A DNA stretch of 32,000 bases, taken from NCBI GenBank assembly GCA_005191425.1, contig SUPR01000003.1:30001-62000 (forward strand), in the 5' to 3' direction. Source of the DNA: Candidatus Helarchaeota ASGARD archaeon Hel_GB_B (GTDB lineage Archaea > Asgardarchaeota > Lokiarchaeia > Helarchaeales > HEL-GB-B). Below, piece by piece: positions 24,763 to 32,000 of the stretch. Position numbers and translations under genes: made by a program. Under the pieces are notes generated by a model, which saw nothing but the letters and a program-made list of their open reading frames with translations, was not told the DNA's origin and made no database searches. How positions within the stretch are numbered: position 1 is the first letter of the stretch; each line of letters starts with the position of its first letter.

Positions 24763-26975
24763 TACTCACTAACAATTTCTGGTAAATCCCAAACTTTTTT
24801 AAATTCAATTGCACCATTTGGGCATCGTTCTACGCATTTTTGGCAAGCAATACACTTTATTGGTGTTATATTAATAGTACCAAGTCCCAAAAAATTTTCA
24901 GGCAATTTTATTGGCTTGCTAGGTATTTTTAAAGCTATATTTTTTATTATATTAATAATCATTTTCTTGTTTATCGGTAATTCATCAAGTTCTTCTTTAG
25001 ATAATTTAAAAATCTCTTGAATATCCCACTCATTTACCAAGTTTAATGCTGATTCTGGGCAAACTTCTTCACAGCTTTTACATGCTATACATTTCTTAAT
25101 ATCCCAATATATTTTTCCAAAACCGACTATATATTGTTCATAATCAAATTCAGTTTCATATTTTATTTTTGGAATTTTTATTGGAATAAGATTTTCAATA
25201 TTGATATCAATTTCTTTTTTACCTAAATTTCTAGATATTGAATCAAAAGTTCTTAAAAGTCTGTGATAATCTTTAAGAATATTATTTAAATCTGTCCTAA
25301 TAACTTTATTTGAATTATATTTGATATTACTTAAATTAGTTAATTCTTCGTCTATTTTCAATAAAGTTTCAAAAACAATTTGAAAATTTTCCCCGTTAAT
25401 TTCGCTTATTTTCAACAAAAAGTCTAAATCATTTAAAATTACATATATATTATCAAATAATGTATCCAAAAATTTTTCTGCTTGGCTTAAAACATGTGGG
25501 ACATCATATATGAAATAATCTTTTTTTTCGTCAACAATATCTATTTGTTTATCATTTAACATAGTAAGAAGTAGCTCAATTATTTCTTTTTGCTCAATTT
25601 TTGTGATATTGGATAGATCAAAAGGTGTCATAGGGCCATAATTTTTTAAAGATACAATTATTAGAGCTTTATTGAATTCTGTTAATAAGTTTTGATCCAA
25701 AAAATTAGCCAAATTAAAATTATCTTCTGTATTTTCTGTCTGTAAGAATTGACCTTTTTCAAAAACCAATGGGATTTTTTTCATATTAAATAATTCAATT
25801 CCAGCTAAAACCCTCAAATTAAGTCTATTGACTTGTCCTTGCTTTTCAAATTCAATAATCTTATCATTAAATAATTGAATTTCATCATTTATTAATTTTA
25901 AATATTTTAAAATATTTTCTTCATTCATTATTTCCGAATTTTTTGAAATAATGTTTTTAATTTTATCTATTTTTATAAAAAAGTAATTTACTACTTGAAA
26001 TTCTCTTAATTTATTAAAATTCTTGCTTAAATCAATTATATTTTTTAGTATTTTACTTACAGGGGGTATATCACAAATTAATTTGTAGTTAATTGTATTA
26101 TCTTTTATAATAACATCCAATAATCTTCTATCCATTAATAAAAAAATAGCTTTTATTATTATATCACTTGATAAATTACTGATTTTAATCAAATCATCAA
26201 AATCAAATTCTATTTGGCTATTTAAAAGGAAGATAATTAATGATGCGACTAATTCTACCAGTAATGTATTTTGAATATACTTTACTGTTTCTGCTTCATT
26301 TATTTTTTTTGTTGTAAAAGCTTTTTTAATTTGTATAAACGAGAATGTCAATTTTTTATTTTTTAAAATTCCAATTAATTTATCATTTACATATTTAAAA
26401 AAAGAATTTATGACCTGTTCTTCAGGTATTAATTTTAGATTATTAAAATAAATAAATAAATTGCGTAATTCATCCATTGATCCAATATGTTGTAATTCTT
26501 TTAAATTTGGATTCGGTATTATCTTATTTATTATATTTTCTATATTATCTAAGTAATTATTAATCTTATTAAAAGTATTATTGATTAATTTTTCATCATA
26601 ACTCTTTTTTATTCTATATAGTTGTTCCTTTTTATCTCGAACTTTCAAATTTTGAATATCTTTAATTTTTTTAATATCAATTGATATTTCTTCAAATATA
26701 TTTAATAGATGTTTTTTTAAATTAAAATCTCTGACGTTATAAAGGATATTGTTAGAGTTAAGAAAAGATATTAAATCATTTTTTATGATGTTTTTTACTT
26801 TTTTTATTGAACCCTTAAATTCATTAAATTTACTAATAATTTCGTTAAATTCCTTCTTAATACCTGTATTTACATTAAAAGTTCTCTTTTTTATTGTTAA
26901 TAATTTTAATATTTGTTCTAAAAACTCCAATCTTTTTGATGGTATCTGAATATTTTCGATCAATAACCTACTCAC
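24732..26975 (-). CDS. 747-aa protein: long helical N-terminus, winged-helix-like middle and two C-terminal 4Fe-4S motifs
   Basis: CIACKSCEEVCP and CIACQKCVERCP near the C-terminus; LKNYGPMTPFDLSNITKIEQKEIIELL..M is HTH-like. GTG start overlaps the upstream gene by 8 nt. Confidence 0.85.
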   Translation of the reverse strand: MSRLLIENIQIPSKRLEFLEQILKLLTIKKRTFNVNTGIKKEFNEIISKFNEFKGSIKKVKNIIKNDLISFLNSNNILYNVRDFNLKKHLLNIFEEISIDIKKIKDIQNLKVRDKKEQLYRIKKSYDEKLINNTFNKINNYLDNIENIINKIIPNPNLKELQHIGSMDELRNLFIYFNNLKLIPEEQVINSFFKYVNDKLIGILKNKKLTFSFIQIKKAFTTKKINEAETVKYIQNTLLVELVASLIIFLLNSQIEFDFDDLIKISNLSSDIIIKAIFLLMDRRLLDVIIKDNTINYKLICDIPPVSKILKNIIDLSKNFNKLREFQVVNYFFIKIDKIKNIISKNSEIMNEENILKYLKLINDEIQLFNDKIIEFEKQGQVNRLNLRVLAGIELFNMKKIPLVFEKGQFLQTENTEDNFNLANFLDQNLLTEFNKALIIVSLKNYGPMTPFDLSNITKIEQKEIIELLLTMLNDKQIDIVDEKKDYFIYDVPHVLSQAEKFLDTLFDNIYVILNDLDFLLKISEINGENFQIVFETLLKIDEELTNLSNIKYNSNKVIRTDLNNILKDYHRLLRTFDSISRNLGKKEIDINIENLIPIKIPKIKYETEFDYEQYIVGFGKIYWDIKKCIACKSCEEVCPESALNLVNEWDIQEIFKLSKEELDELPINKKMIINIIKNIALKIPSKPIKLPENFLGLGTINITPIKCIACQKCVERCPNGAIEFKKVWDLPEIVSEYLNKFEFLGS

Positions 26976-29142
26976 TTTTTAATTTAAATTTTGGTAATTT
27001 ATCGAATTCATTTATTCTTTTTACAAAATCTTTAATTTTCAAGTATAATTTATTATTATCAGCTGCAAATGAAGTAAAGAATTCTATTCTATTTTTTTCC
27101 CAACCAATTGCCTCTAATATTTCCTTAGCAGCTTCTATTTGCATTTTTGCTTTAGAATTTCCATCAATATAATGGCATTTACCTTCATCACAAGCAATTA
27201 AAAAAACGCCATTAGCTCCTTCGTTAAAACATTTAAGAATATCTAATAATGACAATCTGCCACCACATGGTAAACGAATTAACCTGATATTATCTGAATA
27301 GCTTTTTCTTAATAATCCAAGCATATCTACCGAGGCATATGCACATTCATTACATACAAATCCTAGAATAATTGGTTTTTCAAATGTATGGGAATCTTTT
27401 AAAATAGATTCTATTTGAGCAAAAATCTCTTTGGGAGAATAATTATTTAATTTTGCTGCTCCAGTTGGGCAAACTGCATTACAAACTCCACATCCACGAC
27501 AAGAATATGGATCAATTAAAGCAAGGTATCTTACATCAGTTGAAGTTTCATTTTCCTTTTGTACCATATATGGGACTGAAAACGGGCATATCCTAACGCA
27601 TAGTTCACAGCCATTGCATAGTTCAGGATCTACAATCGTAAAATTCTGAGTATTAAAGATTTCAGGGAATTCAAATAATTTAATTATTTCCATCGACACT
27701 GAGTTTGCTTCTTTTAATGTTTCATCAATTAATTTAGGGCCCAAAACTGTTCCGCACGCAAAAATTCCATTTCGTGAAGTTTCAATATTATTTTGTTTTG
27801 GATATTTTCCTTGAATAAATCCTTTATTCCATGTTTTAATATTGATTTGATTTAATAACTTTATATTCTCCTTATTAGGGATAATTGCTGTGGATAAAAC
27901 AATTAAATCTGGATGAATTATTAAGACTTTTTGTAATAATGAGTCGTAAATTGTTACTGACAACTTATTCTGTATTTTTTCAATTTTTCCCAATTCTCCT
28001 CTTATAAAATTTATTCCTAAAGACCTGGCTTTTTGATAATCATATTCTGCTTTCCAAGGTGTCCTAATATCTATGTAAAGAATTGTAATTTCAAATTTTG
28101 GGAAATTGTTAAGAATTTCAATAGAATAATTAATAGCTGTTATACAACAATATTTACTACAATAATCATAATACTTTTTATTTCTTGAACCAACACATTG
28201 GACTATTAAAATTCGCTTTTTTAACTTGTTATCGCTAAATATTTTCATTAAATCTTTATCAGCATTATTTATATTATGATTTTTTAAAAAATTAAAAAAT
28301 TCTCCTAACTCAGATAAGGTAATTACATTTTTTTCTTCATCATATTTGTAAAAATCATTTAATTTTGGCCGAAAAATATCATGGCCCGTGGCTAATACTA
28401 GAACGGACGCATTTAATGTTTTTTCATTTAATTTATTATCGTGTTCTACGATTTTAACGGTATAATTCCCCAAATTTCCTATTATCCATTCAACATTCCA
28501 ATTAGTTAATATTCTAATTTTTTGAAAGTTTAATGATTTTACAATTTTTTCTATGAAATCTTTTCCTGATGTATTATATGGATGAATAAATGGTAATTTA
28601 TTGATAAATCCACCCAAGTAATTTTCTTTTTCTATAATTGTTATTTCATAACCAAGATCTTGTAAATTTTTTGCTATCTGTAATCCTGCTATTCCCCCCC
28701 CAATAATAACTAACTTCTTTTCTAATTCTTTGACCTCATTTGTTTTATATTCTTTAGTAAATAATTTATCAATGTGCGATTTTATTAATATTGTAGCCTT
28801 GTAAGTAGCTTTATTAGATTCATGAACCCAAGCACATTGTTCGCGTATATTTGCGACTTCAAATAAGATATTTTGTAGATTATATTTTTTTAACTCAAGC
28901 TTAAGTTTCATTTCTATTATCTGTGGTGTACAACCTCCAAATACAATACCTTTAATATTTTTTGTTTCCAAGATTTTAATTAGTTTTTGAAATCCTTCAG
29001 TTGAGCATAAATGGTCAAAAATATAGATGGAAGAGAGGGGAAATTCTTTTTTTAAATCAGATTCTATTAATTTAAAATTTAATTCCATTGTATTTCCGCA
29101 AGTACAAAGGCAAATTAAAACTTGATCTTGGTTAAGAAATAT
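26968..29142 (-). CDS. hdrA: HdrA-like flavoprotein fused to a C-terminal MvhD domain (QmoB-like architecture)
   Basis: N-terminal domain (GGCTP, ANIREQCAWVH), IIGGGIAG FAD site, VQCVGSR..YCSKYCC, GIFACG, ferredoxin CNGCELCVRICP / CRGCGVCNAVCP, and MvhD part FVCNECAY...RLPCGG...ACDEGKCHY. The first ATG is at 29088, but the conserved VLICLCTCG motif lies upstream in frame, so I extended the start to the ATA at 29142 (uncertain). Confidence 0.9.
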   Translation of the reverse strand: MFLNQDQVLICLCTCGNTMELNFKLIESDLKKEFPLSSIYIFDHLCSTEGFQKLIKILETKNIKGIVFGGCTPQIIEMKLKLELKKYNLQNILFEVANIREQCAWVHESNKATYKATILIKSHIDKLFTKEYKTNEVKELEKKLVIIGGGIAGLQIAKNLQDLGYEITIIEKENYLGGFINKLPFIHPYNTSGKDFIEKIVKSLNFQKIRILTNWNVEWIIGNLGNYTVKIVEHDNKLNEKTLNASVLVLATGHDIFRPKLNDFYKYDEEKNVITLSELGEFFNFLKNHNINNADKDLMKIFSDNKLKKRILIVQCVGSRNKKYYDYCSKYCCITAINYSIEILNNFPKFEITILYIDIRTPWKAEYDYQKARSLGINFIRGELGKIEKIQNKLSVTIYDSLLQKVLIIHPDLIVLSTAIIPNKENIKLLNQINIKTWNKGFIQGKYPKQNNIETSRNGIFACGTVLGPKLIDETLKEANSVSMEIIKLFEFPEIFNTQNFTIVDPELCNGCELCVRICPFSVPYMVQKENETSTDVRYLALIDPYSCRGCGVCNAVCPTGAAKLNNYSPKEIFAQIESILKDSHTFEKPIILGFVCNECAYASVDMLGLLRKSYSDNIRLIRLPCGGRLSLLDILKCFNEGANGVFLIACDEGKCHYIDGNSKAKMQIEAAKEILEAIGWEKNRIEFFTSFAADNNKLYLKIKDFVKRINEFDKLPKFKLKSE

Positions 29143-30478
29143 TATCCCTCCTAAAATTGTTAATTTCTTTAAAAATTTTTAGTGCAATACTTTTTGAAGA
29201 TGTTATTGTATCAACAATATCCATTGGACTTATAACAGACCCACAAGCATAAATTCCTTCTATATTGGTGGTAATTTGATCTTCTTTTACATTAATAAAA
29301 CCTTCAGAAGTTAATTCTAAATTTAATTTTCTGGATAATTCTATACTATCCTTAGACATAATAATTGCTGTACTTAATACTAATAAATCAGCTTGAATAA
29401 TAAGTACCGCATTCAATAGAGCATCATATATTTTTAAAGTTAATTTATTATCATTTTCTTTATTTTCTGATTGTTTAATATCTATTAATCTTCCCTTGAT
29501 AAATTTCACATCATTTTCTCGAGCTTGGGTATAATATTTTTCTAAAAACCCCATTGTCCTAATATCTATGTAAACGATATAAACTTCAGGGGGTGGGTCA
29601 TAATTTTCTTTTAGTATTTTTGCATTTTTGATAGCATATTCACAACAAAGTACACTACAATATCTATTATATTTTTCATCTCTAGACCCTACACATTGCA
29701 CTATAACTATTGATTTAACTTCTTTTTGATTTGATGGACGTATTAATTTTCCTTGAGTTGGTCCGTTTGGGTCTATCATTAATACTAATTGATATTGTGT
29801 TATTACATCTTTATATATTCCATATTTGTAGTCGTTCATTAATTTTGGGATATATTCATCAAAACCTGTTGCTAATATTATATCTGCACATGAAATATTT
29901 ATATGGATGTCTTTTTCGTTTAGATTAATTGCATTGACCGGACATGATTTTTCACATAAATTACACCCAAATTTGCATTTATCTTGATTAATAATAAAAT
30001 AGTTAGATATACATTGTGGATAATGGCTTGATATAATCGGAAGATCTGGATTTCCTTTAAAAACCTCATTTAAATCGTTAATTTTTGGGCACACTACTAA
30101 ACATTTTCCACAATTAATACAATCTTGGTTAACATATGTAGCGTGTTTTATTAATTTAATTTTAAAATTTCCTTTTTTACCAGAGCAAGATTCAAGTTCT
30201 GTATTATTAAGTAGAACAATATTTGGATGAAAATTTATCCCAGATCGATAAAAGCATTTTCTTATGCCATCCTTATATTTGGTGGAAAGGAGACAAAAAA
30301 AACAATCATCTGTGGGAAATGCTTTATAGAGGTGGCCGGCATGCCCTCCAAAAAAGGGTTTTTTCTCAATTAAGTATATTTTAAAACCCAAATCTGCCAA
30401 TTGTATTGCCATATTTAGGCCAGCAATACCGCCACCAAAAATACTTATCGTTTTTTCTGTTTCCAAATTTTTACTCAT
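29132..30478 (-). CDS. hdrA: HdrA-like flavoprotein lacking the N-terminal and C-terminal ferredoxin domains (QmoA-like length, with inserted ferredoxin)
   Basis: IFGGGIAG, KAFPTDDCFFC, CINCGKCLVVCP, CKFGCNLCEKSCP, ILATGF, VQCVGSRD..YCSVLCC, DIRT.G and GIYACG...P.DI. Confidence 0.92.
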   Translation of the reverse strand: MSKNLETEKTISIFGGGIAGLNMAIQLADLGFKIYLIEKKPFFGGHAGHLYKAFPTDDCFFCLLSTKYKDGIRKCFYRSGINFHPNIVLLNNTELESCSGKKGNFKIKLIKHATYVNQDCINCGKCLVVCPKINDLNEVFKGNPDLPIISSHYPQCISNYFIINQDKCKFGCNLCEKSCPVNAINLNEKDIHINISCADIILATGFDEYIPKLMNDYKYGIYKDVITQYQLVLMIDPNGPTQGKLIRPSNQKEVKSIVIVQCVGSRDEKYNRYCSVLCCEYAIKNAKILKENYDPPPEVYIVYIDIRTMGFLEKYYTQARENDVKFIKGRLIDIKQSENKENDNKLTLKIYDALLNAVLIIQADLLVLSTAIIMSKDSIELSRKLNLELTSEGFINVKEDQITTNIEGIYACGSVISPMDIVDTITSSKSIALKIFKEINNFRRDNIS

Positions 30479-30776
30479 CTTTTACATACCAATGATGTTT
30501 TAATCGTAATTTATATATTTCAAATTCCAAATTTGTTAATTCATTTTGTAGGGCTTTTATTTCAATATTAAATTTCTCTTGGGATATTTCTCCAATTTGC
30601 TTTTGGACGACCAAATTCTTTAATTCTAATTGTTTTAATTTTATTGATTTTTTAATCTCTTCAAATTTATCTCTATTTTCTGAGATTATTTGTTTCCATT
30701 TATTACTAGATTTGTTTGTCTTATCTAATTGGTCGATAATTTCCATTAATTTTTTTCTTTTTTCTTCATCAATCAC
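30471..30776 (-). CDS. Small coiled-coil hypothetical protein (101 aa)
   Basis: GTG start; overlaps hdrA by 8 nt. The QIGEISQEKF..EIKAL...L motif resembles SHOCT/CdvA-type coiled-coil ends. Confidence 0.7.
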   Translation of the reverse strand: MIDEEKRKKLMEIIDQLDKTNKSSNKWKQIISENRDKFEEIKKSIKLKQLELKNLVVQKQIGEISQEKFNIEIKALQNELTNLEFEIYKLRLKHHWYVKDE

Positions 30777-30811
30777 TTTTCAAACAACTTTATATTATTT
30801 CTACACACTAT

Positions 30812-30880
30812 AATCGATCCCTGTGCAAGGGTGTCCTATTCAGAGCAGCTCTTTAAGTCTGAACAGTCATTCTATCGATT
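30812..30880 (-). promoter_or_regulatory. Eukaryote-type (Lokiarchaeota-like) SECIS element
   Basis: Minus strand: AAUCGAU-AGA-AUGA-CUGUUCAGA-CUUAAAGAGCUGC-UCUGAAUAG-GA-CA-CCCU(UGCAC)AGGG-AUCGAUU. It shows an AUGA/GA core, a 9-bp helix II (one G-U), AAA in the apical loop and a 7-bp helix I, directly after a UGA-containing vhuD. Confidence 0.88.
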
Positions 30881-31307
30881 TTTGCTTTTTTAATGGGTTA
30901 AGTCCCATTTTTTCCACATCTGCTGCGACTTTTTCAATGATATCTTTCAGTTTGTCAGCTTCGGCAGCTGATACAAAATGCATTTGTACCCGGTCTTCAT
31001 TAATTCCAATGTCTTTCAATAATTCTCTAACAAATTTAACTCGTCTGGCGCATGCTAAATTCCCTACTTTATATTCGCAATCTCCGGGATGTCAACCAAC
31101 GCTAATCACTGCATCTGCGCCATCTACTAGTCCCCGTAAGATGTGATTGACATCTACTCGACCTGTACATGGTAACCTAAGAATTCTTACTATCGGATTA
31201 TATTGTAGCTTAAGAGTCCCTGCTAAATCTGCAGCAGAATAGGAACACCTCATACATGCAAACATTAATACGACAGGTTGTTGCTCTTTAATTTTACATC
31301 ACTCCAT
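30867..31307 (-). CDS. vhuD: Selenocysteine-containing MvhD/VhuD (hydrogenase/Hdr 2Fe-2S delta subunit), 146 codons; absent from the ORF track
   Basis: Hand translation: ME(U)CKIKEQQPVVLMFACMRCSYSAADLAGTLKLQYNPIVRILRLPCTGRVDVNHILRGLVDGADAVISVG(U)HPGDCEYKVGNLACARRVKFVRELLKDIGINEDRVQMHFVSAAEADKLKDIIEKVAADVEKMGLNPLKKQKSIE*. TGA at 31094-31092 (codon 72) sits at a conserved Cys/Sec ligand position and family similarity continues past it. Confidence 0.95.
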
Positions 31308-32000
31308 TTAATTATTTTCTTTTAAAATTGCATCTATTTGATTTAATATTTGGACATCTTTCCACCATCTTAAATCTCGAGCTCCAATTGGACAAGATGC
31401 TACACAGATCCCACATCCTTTACATTTCATTTCATCTGTTGTTGAAATCATTTTAAAAGGGCTAATATCTTTAATTGATATTGCATCATATGGACATACA
31501 ACTTCACATAGACCACATCCAACGCATTTTTCTATATCAACATCAGCTCTGATCATCTCAATTTCGATTCCTTTATGTTTAATTGCTGAAATACTTGCTG
31601 CCCCACGGGCAAGTGCAATGGTATCTGAAATATCTTTTGGAAAGGTAGACGCAGTATAAATTCCTGGAACTTTTGTCTCAACAGGTTTAAATTTTAAGTG
31701 AAGTTCTTCGATAAACCCATCTTCCGATCTAGTGATACCAAGTATTTTGCATAAATTTTCTATATCATCTGGTGCTTCTTGTCCAACAGCTAAAATCACA
31801 TAATCTATTTTTAATTCTAATTCTTTTTTTAATAATGTATCAAATATTTTTACTATAATCTTATCAGAATCTATTGCTTTGCTAACTTTTGGTGGAAAAT
31901 TCGGTTCCCACCTTATATAATTGACTCCCATTAATTGAGATGTGATATAATTTTCTTCCATATATCTACCAAATGCCCTAATAGATTCTTTATAAAGTAC
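31308..32000 (-). CDS. hdrA: Heterodisulfide reductase subunit A, C-terminal part (5'-truncated by the window edge)
   Basis: Frame open to the window end (VLYKESIRAFGRYMEENY, the LY.DIR..G motif). Also DYVILAVG, DGFIEELHLKFKPVET.VPGIY, PKDISDT, CVGCGLCEVVCPY and CKGCGICVASCP. Confidence 0.95.
   Translation of the reverse strand, partial: VLYKESIRAFGRYMEENYITSQLMGVNYIRWEPNFPPKVSKAIDSDKIIVKIFDTLLKKELELKIDYVILAVGQEAPDDIENLCKILGITRSEDGFIEELHLKFKPVETKVPGIYTASTFPKDISDTIALARGAASISAIKHKGIEIEMIRADVDIEKCVGCGLCEVVCPYDAISIKDISPFKMISTTDEMKCKGCGICVASCPIGARDLRWWKDVQILNQIDAILKENN

Follow-up and report, generated by a model that had tools for sequence, protein, structure and literature searches.

A vhuD with a predicted selenocysteine, and its neighbours

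The window, that is, the whole 32,000-nt stretch of DNA analysed here, carries on its minus strand a vhuD/mvhD gene that can be followed, as far as homologues align, from 31265 to 30867, where it closes with a TGA stop codon (30869–30867); its true start lies further upstream. The product matches the Pfam family FlpD (PF02662) at 1.7e-42 over residues 1–121. Within this reading frame lies a UGA triplet (31094–31092, minus strand), in the motif VG-U-HPGDC, which we read as selenocysteine (Sec): it occupies the position of a cluster-ligand Cys, and 74 more conserved codons follow it in frame.

Several start codons can be considered for vhuD. The ATG at 31307 adjoins the hdrA stop codon but would place a UGA at codon 3 (ME-U-C), and its equivalent in the orthologue from the same genus is AAG. 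The Met of the sequence MFAC, at 31265, is Leu in that orthologue. An in-frame ATT (AUU in the mRNA) at 31292, behind a GGAG-like motif, is kept in both same-genus vhuD loci.

Upstream of vhuD is the 3′ part of an HdrA-like gene (31308–32000, minus strand) with Pfam 4Fe-4S domains, which continues past the edge of the window. Its full frame, read from the contig, contains no in-frame UGA in 720 residues; the selenocysteine insertion sequence (SECIS) described below, at 30880–30812, would therefore serve vhuD only, that is, a single codon 224 nt upstream of its AUGA core.

Three genes lie 3′ of this element on the same strand, at 30471–30776 and 26968–30478: a coiled-coil open reading frame, an HdrA-like gene and an HdrA–MvhD fusion. 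The coiled-coil frame, of 101 aa, belongs to no Pfam family and is conserved beside vhuD in orthologous loci. The HdrA-like gene encodes 448 aa and the fusion 706 aa; the fusion has Cys (IACDEGKCHY) at the position where the free-standing vhuD has Sec. Metagenome runs classed as hydrothermal-vent, marine or marine-sediment include contigs with DNA nearly identical to window positions 30400–31400; in seven metagenome entries at least half of the sampled words are present, one of these entries may be the source sample, and none is on record as RNA.

A three-way junction at the vhuD stop codon

Directly 3′ of the UGA-containing vhuD lies an element of 69 nt (30880–30812, minus strand), in the order AAUCGAU-AGA-AUGA-CUGUUCAGA-CUUAAAGAGCUGC-UCUGAAUAG-GA-CA-CCCU-UGCAC-AGGG-AUCGAUU. 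The 5′ strand of its lower (C) helix, AAUCGAU (30880–30874), is drawn from the last vhuD codons and pairs, in both the RNAfold minimum free energy (MFE) structure and the centroid, with AUCGAUU (30818–30812), a 3′ strand that is also supported by comparison of orthologues. The bulged 5′ junction strand, AGA (30873–30871) followed by AUGA (30870–30867), holds the SECIS core. Above it, RNAfold forms an upper (NC) helix of 9 bp between CUGUUCAGA (30866–30858) and UCUGAAUAG (30844–30836), with no mismatch and one G-U pair, which closes a 13-nt apical loop, CUUAAAGAGCUGC (30857–30845), bearing AAA at loop positions 4–6. On the non-bulged strand, the 3′ core GA (30835–30834) and a connector CA (30833–30832) lead into a side hairpin, the third (T) helix of the junction, in which CCCU (30831–30828) and AGGG (30822–30819) form 4 bp around the loop UGCAC (30827–30823). 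There is no spacer (0 nt) between this hairpin and the lower helix. The UGA of the AUGA core (30869–30867) is itself the vhuD stop codon, the frame ending AUA GAA UGA.

Unconstrained RNAfold returns this three-way junction as the MFE structure (−19.3 kcal/mol) and also as the centroid, and both agree with the original prediction in its AUGA, 9-bp upper helix, GA, AAA loop, 7-bp lower helix and side hairpin. The prediction had also offered an alternative apical pairing, a form-II mini-stem GAG-CUG-CUC; this is absent from the MFE and centroid folds, and the same-genus orthologue has only a single base between GAG and CUC, which rules the pairing out there; we have dropped it. The stability of the single fold is not significant, with z = −1.30 and 24 of 200 shuffled sequences folding equally well; the case for the element therefore rests on comparison.

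Searches with Rfam found no family at gathering score in the whole window and, in the surroundings of the element, no SECIS family at E ≤ 10 either. A covariance model of the three-helix structure, in which the element was itself one of 46 training rows, finds it in the 32-kb window at 44.2 bits (E 3.7e-10), the next match having 13 bits. The element is low-scoring for its family (40–44 bits, against 60–80).

The element accompanies the in-frame UGA in vhuD orthologues

UGA is found at the Sec position of vhuD in five orthologues: those of this genome, of a congener (G001) and of three members of a sister family (G002, G004 and G006). The element follows the stop codon in all five of these and is absent from both orthologues that have Cys (G005 and G003), where the conserved downstream coiled-coil gene begins within about 20 nt of vhuD.

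All three helices are kept in the congener, and compensatory substitutions are seen in two of them: the lower helix has AAUCGAA/UUCGAUU in place of AAUCGAU/AUCGAUU, and the upper helix has A-U in place of C-G. The congener's element has an 11-bp stem and a 10-nt apical loop whose end is GAG, and there, as in many related loci, the UGA of the core is again the stop codon.

The core itself varies in the sister family. In G002 (locus L029) and G006 (locus L031) it reads AUGC rather than AUGA and lies just after the vhuD stop, with the Sec UGA retained; in the third member, G004, the core is AUGA_AA.

The side hairpin covaries among hdrA and vhuD elements

For a wider comparison, we assembled 3′ regions from 40 other Sec-vhuD genes of the class, Lokiarchaeia, and six additional SECIS candidates of this genome. 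When the upper stem alone was constrained, 31 of 38 elements had an MFE structure with both lower helix and side hairpin, compared with 15.7% of 1520 dinucleotide-shuffled 3′ tails. Among 37 segmented elements, the third-helix stem takes 28 different forms and the lower helix 31, and 22 of these elements have 0 nt between side hairpin and lower helix; the 3′ core commonly takes the trinucleotide form GAC in these relatives. The loop of the side hairpin carries the motif GC[AG] in 32 of the 37 hdrA/vhuD elements, as against 7.4% of random loops, the exceptions being GU[GA].

Plain MAFFT alignment followed by RNAalifold recovered the upper stem alone, the other helices varying in length; because these variable-length helices were lost, a hand-annotated covariance model was used instead. 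An alignment of the 46 elements that this three-helix model matched at E ≤ 0.01 (A4) is paired in 80% of cells, compared with 62% for shuffled sequences and 44–52% when pairing partners are slid out of register. Two-sided changes occur in all 20 pairs of A4, among them the five of the third helix and the nine of the upper helix, counts that overstate independence, as the sequences are kin and model-fitted alignments lean towards the hand-annotated structure. Third-helix pairing reaches only 57–70% in these model-fitted alignments, from varying stem length and register. The upper helix is paired in 90% of A4 and in 95% of an independent set (A5, described below), and alignments A1 and A4 show no variation in AUGA. 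Counts from the genome-wide search with the RNA model are left out here, as that search scored 150 of about 10,400 candidates and missed the element at 30880–30812; an initial whole-genome pattern search was too loose to inform.

Some hdrA genes of this genome have a three-helix SECIS of their own right after the stop codon, with a second one after the downstream vhuD, at C41:5764 and C41:6360, at C167:2158 and C167:2660–2728, and at C122:8612. This differs from the published arrangement for Lokiarchaeota, in which one element follows each hdrA–vhuD pair (PMC4989117); here, some hdrA and vhuD genes each have their own.

The same junction recurs in other gene families and Asgard lineages

A model trained on hdrA/vhuD elements only gave full-length matches after vhuA/vhuU in 20 relatives. 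The resulting vhuU set (A5) is paired in 82% of cells, compared with 65% for shuffled sequences and 27–43% with partners slid. The vhuU element of this genome, for example, has lower-helix strands AUCGGGU and ACCCGAU and a side hairpin AGCUCU-UGCA-AGAGCU.

The hairpin is likewise placed between GA and the lower helix in selD elements, which entered no model and are mostly type II. An initial, loose three-way-junction descriptor matched 55–67% of shuffled tails and was replaced by a strict one with a side stem of at least 4 bp, a lower helix of at least 5 bp and a spacer of at most 2 nt. The strict layout is present in 81% of selD elements, against 13% of their shuffled tails, and in 71% of vhuD elements, against 9.7%; with a G[CU][AG] loop added, the figures become 68–75% for native sequences and about 2% for shuffles (75% and 2.0% for selD). 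Elements of vhuU often have stems of 3 bp and weaker loop conservation, and 31% of them have the strict layout with the motif. In a plain MFE test on 150-nt selD windows, the junction appeared in only 7 of 20, because the flanks compete. Related loops, UGCGA, UGCAA, GUAAGCG and AGAAUGCA, are found in selD elements and in other Asgard families.

Outside the class, the three-helix layout is found in Sec-vhuD genes of three families (f11, f19 and f21) and in a single-contig genome from a fourth lineage (G054), for whose element no RNA dataset is listed.

By these sequence comparisons, the side hairpin is a covarying and conserved part of the element across hdrA, vhuD, vhuU and selD and across several Asgard lineages. 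The three-way junction proposed from the original sequence thus stands as real and conserved, on the evidence of covariation in all three helices, shuffle controls and the strict descriptor. What does not stand is the view of the extra hairpin as a peculiarity of this locus: Asgard SECIS elements normally take this form.

The genome encodes a selenocysteine machinery

We searched the assembly of this Helarchaeales host (3.54 Mb, 28% G+C, 93.7% completeness; the window is C118:30001–62000) for the components of Sec synthesis and decoding, a check that the original prediction had called for. The genome encodes aSelB with the archaeal domain III (aSelB_III), in a gene that overlaps the start of SepSecS; SepSecS (380 bits) and a PSTK/KTI12-type kinase (115 bits); and, at a contig end, a SelD gene that itself has an in-frame UGA. 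For tRNA-Sec, neither Rfam (RF01852) nor ARAGORN gave a match in this genome; the Rfam model matched in four of five relatives, and gave no match in the genome of the congener. A search by nhmmer with a relative's tRNA-Sec located the gene at C9:14936–15125 (plus strand), between selB/SepSecS and PSTK. Three insertions interrupt it: one of about 47 nt behind the 5′ acceptor strand, a second of 24 nt within the anticodon loop and a third, in the T loop, of 27 nt. With these taken out, the sequence has the 9/4 fold and an encoded G-CCA end, and ARAGORN calls it tRNA-SeC(UCA); the insertions are read as introns and were removed by hand, at inferred splice sites. With this gene the set is complete: aSelB, SepSecS, PSTK, Sec-containing SelD and tRNA-Sec are all present. 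The original prediction had named a genome without Sec machinery, and helices without covariation, as grounds for rejecting it; neither applies here.

ARAGORN reports only 6–8 tRNA genes in the 3.5 Mb, with or without intron search, and several tRNAs detected by Rfam are at least 100 nt long, which suggests that most tRNA genes here have non-canonical or multiple introns.

Genes of the L7Ae family number only two in this genome, both small (119 and 114 aa). According to the literature, no SBP2 has been found in Asgard archaea.

Relation to known SECIS elements

Eukaryotic SECIS elements are bound by SBP2, an L7Ae-domain protein, and by L30. The type I form (Rfam SECIS_1) shares with the present element its unpaired apical adenines, a lower helix below the internal loop and a position 3′ of the coding sequence. 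The element described here differs in having no Rfam match, a shorter upper stem of 9 bp, a third helix within the 3′ side of the internal loop and a place that overlaps the stop codon rather than far out in the 3′ UTR, in a genome without SBP2.

With Methanococcales and Methanopyrus elements it shares the gene, vhuD, the 3′ position and AUGA opposite GAC between a basal and a main stem; in a methanococcal vhuD variant, AUGA and GAC/AAC flank an extra stem (PMC4989117). Those archaeal elements are otherwise marked by a GAA_A bulge with G-C clamps, which is absent here in both sequence and fold, whereas AUGA…GA is present; the assignment to the eukaryote-type architecture, and not to that of Methanococcales, is thus confirmed.

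Elements of this kind have indeed been reported from Lokiarchaeota (PMC4989117) and since then from more than 400 Asgard genomes (PMC11227280). In the description by Mariotti et al. (2016), lokiSECIS has AUGA before and GA after a 9-bp stem with an A-rich loop of 11 nt, near the stop codon, and the Loki elements, like the present one, match no Rfam SECIS model (PMC4989117). Huang, Xiao and Zhang (2024) introduced type I and type II ‘eSECIS-like’ models; type I is defined by a core 5′-GA_[G/A]A-3′, usually AUGA_GA, an upper stem of 7–15 bp with at most 2 mismatches, and an apical loop of 8–20 nt with no ministem and with unpaired adenines near its 5′ side (PMC11227280). The element at 30880–30812 has every one of these features, from the AUGA/GA core and 9-bp stem to the 13-nt loop with AAA, together with the position and the Sec machinery. 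It resembles lokiSECIS and Asgard type I elements in the AUGA before a 9-bp stem, the early loop adenines, the GA(C) that follows and the abutment on the vhuD stop of an hdrA–vhuD pair, as well as in its Asgard host, with Sec machinery of the archaeal/eukaryotic type and no SBP2. It departs from lokiSECIS in the strict sense in that its loop has 13 nt and ends in CUGC, where the lokiSECIS loop has 11 nt and an ultraconserved last G, usually after A; it also serves vhuD alone, the hdrA-like gene having no UGA.

The third helix is harder to find in these accounts. In the text of Mariotti et al., the words hairpin, junction and lower stem are not used in this sense (PMC4989117); in that of Huang et al., the region goes under ‘internal loop and lower stem’, and the one use made of the k-junction paper is as a reference for GA_AA kinks (PMC11227280); and a 2026 review adds nothing further on the hairpin. 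The suggestion that the side hairpin is missing from canonical SECIS models thus agrees with the accessible text of these SECIS papers. The SECIS type is already known and the present element is an ordinary member of it; the published description, in the parts available, appears incomplete as to the third helix.

A likeness to k-junctions

The three-helix layout resembles that of k-junctions, known from the TPP riboswitches of Arabidopsis and Escherichia coli and from DUF-3268 (PMC4005666, PMC10573300), in which the third and C helices share one axis and the NC helix makes an acute angle (PMC10573300). In common with these, the non-bulged strand of the element has a short connector, CA, and a third helix that adjoins the C helix without a spacer, as coaxial stacking would require; A-A core variants occur in both. 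GA is present on both strands beside the NC helix, so that the sequence would allow the tandem G-A/A-G pairs of a k-junction. The bulged strand has 5 nt before the GA, compared with 3 nt in a classical k-turn. The element differs from the known k-junctions in that it is a recoding signal and not a riboswitch scaffold, and in that the loop of its third helix is conserved. The likeness is one of primary and predicted secondary structure, whereas k-junctions are defined by three-dimensional features that include cross-strand hydrogen bonds from 2′-OH groups to adenine, and we put the chance that the element has k-junction geometry at a little less than even.

The comparison bears on the proteins that might bind here. 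Archaeal L7Ae does not fold k-junctions, as the third helix blocks its site (PMC10573300). By analogy, such a block would fit the absence of SBP2 from Asgard archaea, and a genome such as this one, with just two L7Ae-family genes, both small. The original prediction of a core bound by SBP2/L30-type proteins is accordingly left without support, both from this gene count and from the position of the third helix on the non-bulged strand, where it blocks L7Ae in k-junctions.

Interpretation

We interpret 30880–30812 as the SECIS of this vhuD mRNA, an Asgard eSECIS-like element of type I built as a three-way junction, with a probability of roughly 0.85. By analogy with known systems, it would recruit Sec-tRNASec and aSelB to a ribosome paused at the UGA at 31094–31092. 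A ribosome at the core UGA stop would already have melted the lower helix and the core, so the stop codon itself would not be recoded. With no need of an L7Ae/SBP2-type protein, the third helix may form a coaxial stack with the lower helix and keep the upper helix sharply bent; its conserved G-C/U-A/G loop would then be exposed as a contact point for a partner.

One alternative is that the RNA is no SECIS at all. AUGA…GA is also the signature of other kink-turns, such as an L7Ae/L30e regulatory site or a C/D-box-like RNA, and the lack of an Rfam SECIS match would sit well with such an RNA; the in-frame UGA would then be a real stop codon or a sequencing error. Against this, the UGA stands at a conserved Cys position in five orthologues with 74 conserved codons beyond it, the element accompanies Sec and is missing where the orthologue has Cys, the Sec machinery is complete, and the same element follows hdrA, vhuU and selD genes with in-frame UGA. 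There is, moreover, no guide region and there are no D′/C′ boxes, and we consider this reading extremely improbable. A second possibility concerns the side hairpin alone, which might be dispensable for recoding and be a by-product of, or a signal for, mRNA 3′-end formation or stability. U-rich tracts, the usual archaeal termination signal, do follow many elements, and published SECIS models work as search tools without the side hairpin. Yet the hairpin lies inside the lower helix and not after it; its position in the junction is constant across four gene families and several Asgard lineages, where its stem covaries and its loop is conserved; and in tandem arrangements of the form hdrA-SECIS-vhuD-SECIS the internal element keeps it although transcription must run on. 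We regard a hairpin dispensable for recoding as improbable.

The main rival to the k-junction reading takes the third hairpin to be chiefly a sequence-specific docking site, its loop being read by a lineage-specific protein, by aSelB or by the ribosome in the role of SBP2. Judged from the alignments, the conserved loop is not explained by a purely architectural role and argues for contact with a protein, aSelB or the ribosome: the loop motif persists on stems of freely varying sequence, the GC[AG] frequency (32 of 37) is far from the 7.4% of random loops, and related loops recur in selD and other Asgard families. No SBP2 homologue is known in Asgard archaea, and Huang et al. point to an Asgard-only hypothetical protein near Sec genes (PMC11227280). 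Docking would also be in keeping with the one experiment on a Lokiarchaeal SECIS that we found, that of Peiter et al. (2025), in which the Loki vhuU.2 SECIS gave 21 mU/mg in Methanococcus maripaludis, at background, compared with 22 for the control with no SECIS (PMC11881835). The construct seemingly lacked the lower and third helices. The predicted MFE of that construct is −6.9 kcal/mol (PMC11881835), too weak for three helices, and it was therefore probably a bare hairpin. The vhuU elements weigh the other way, with stems often of 3 bp, a weaker loop and only 31% having the strict layout with the motif. Docking and k-junction geometry are compatible and not exclusive; we regard a mainly docking role as a credible minority reading.

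A broader proposal would combine the two: all Asgard SECIS elements would be k-junctions that fold their core without, and sterically against, L7Ae/SBP2, their loop docking a reader (aSelB, the ribosome or the Asgard-only protein near Sec genes), and eukaryotic SECIS elements would have arisen by loss of this helix as SBP2 took over. As a whole this is tentative, and we think it rather unlikely to hold in every part.

As a locus, this is an ordinary case of a vhuD with Sec and a SECIS. The third helix allows searches for Asgard selenoprotein genes to use a more specific descriptor, and it may explain why a Loki SECIS construct, seemingly a bare hairpin, was inactive in Methanococcus. It also provides a testable structural hypothesis, the k-junction, and its loop could serve as bait for a SECIS-binding factor. 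Asgard SECIS elements are cited as a bridge from archaeal to eukaryotic Sec decoding on account of a core that resembles the SBP2-binding kink-turn. If the reading of all these elements as k-junctions is true, a ‘eukaryote-like’ core would not imply eukaryote-like recognition.
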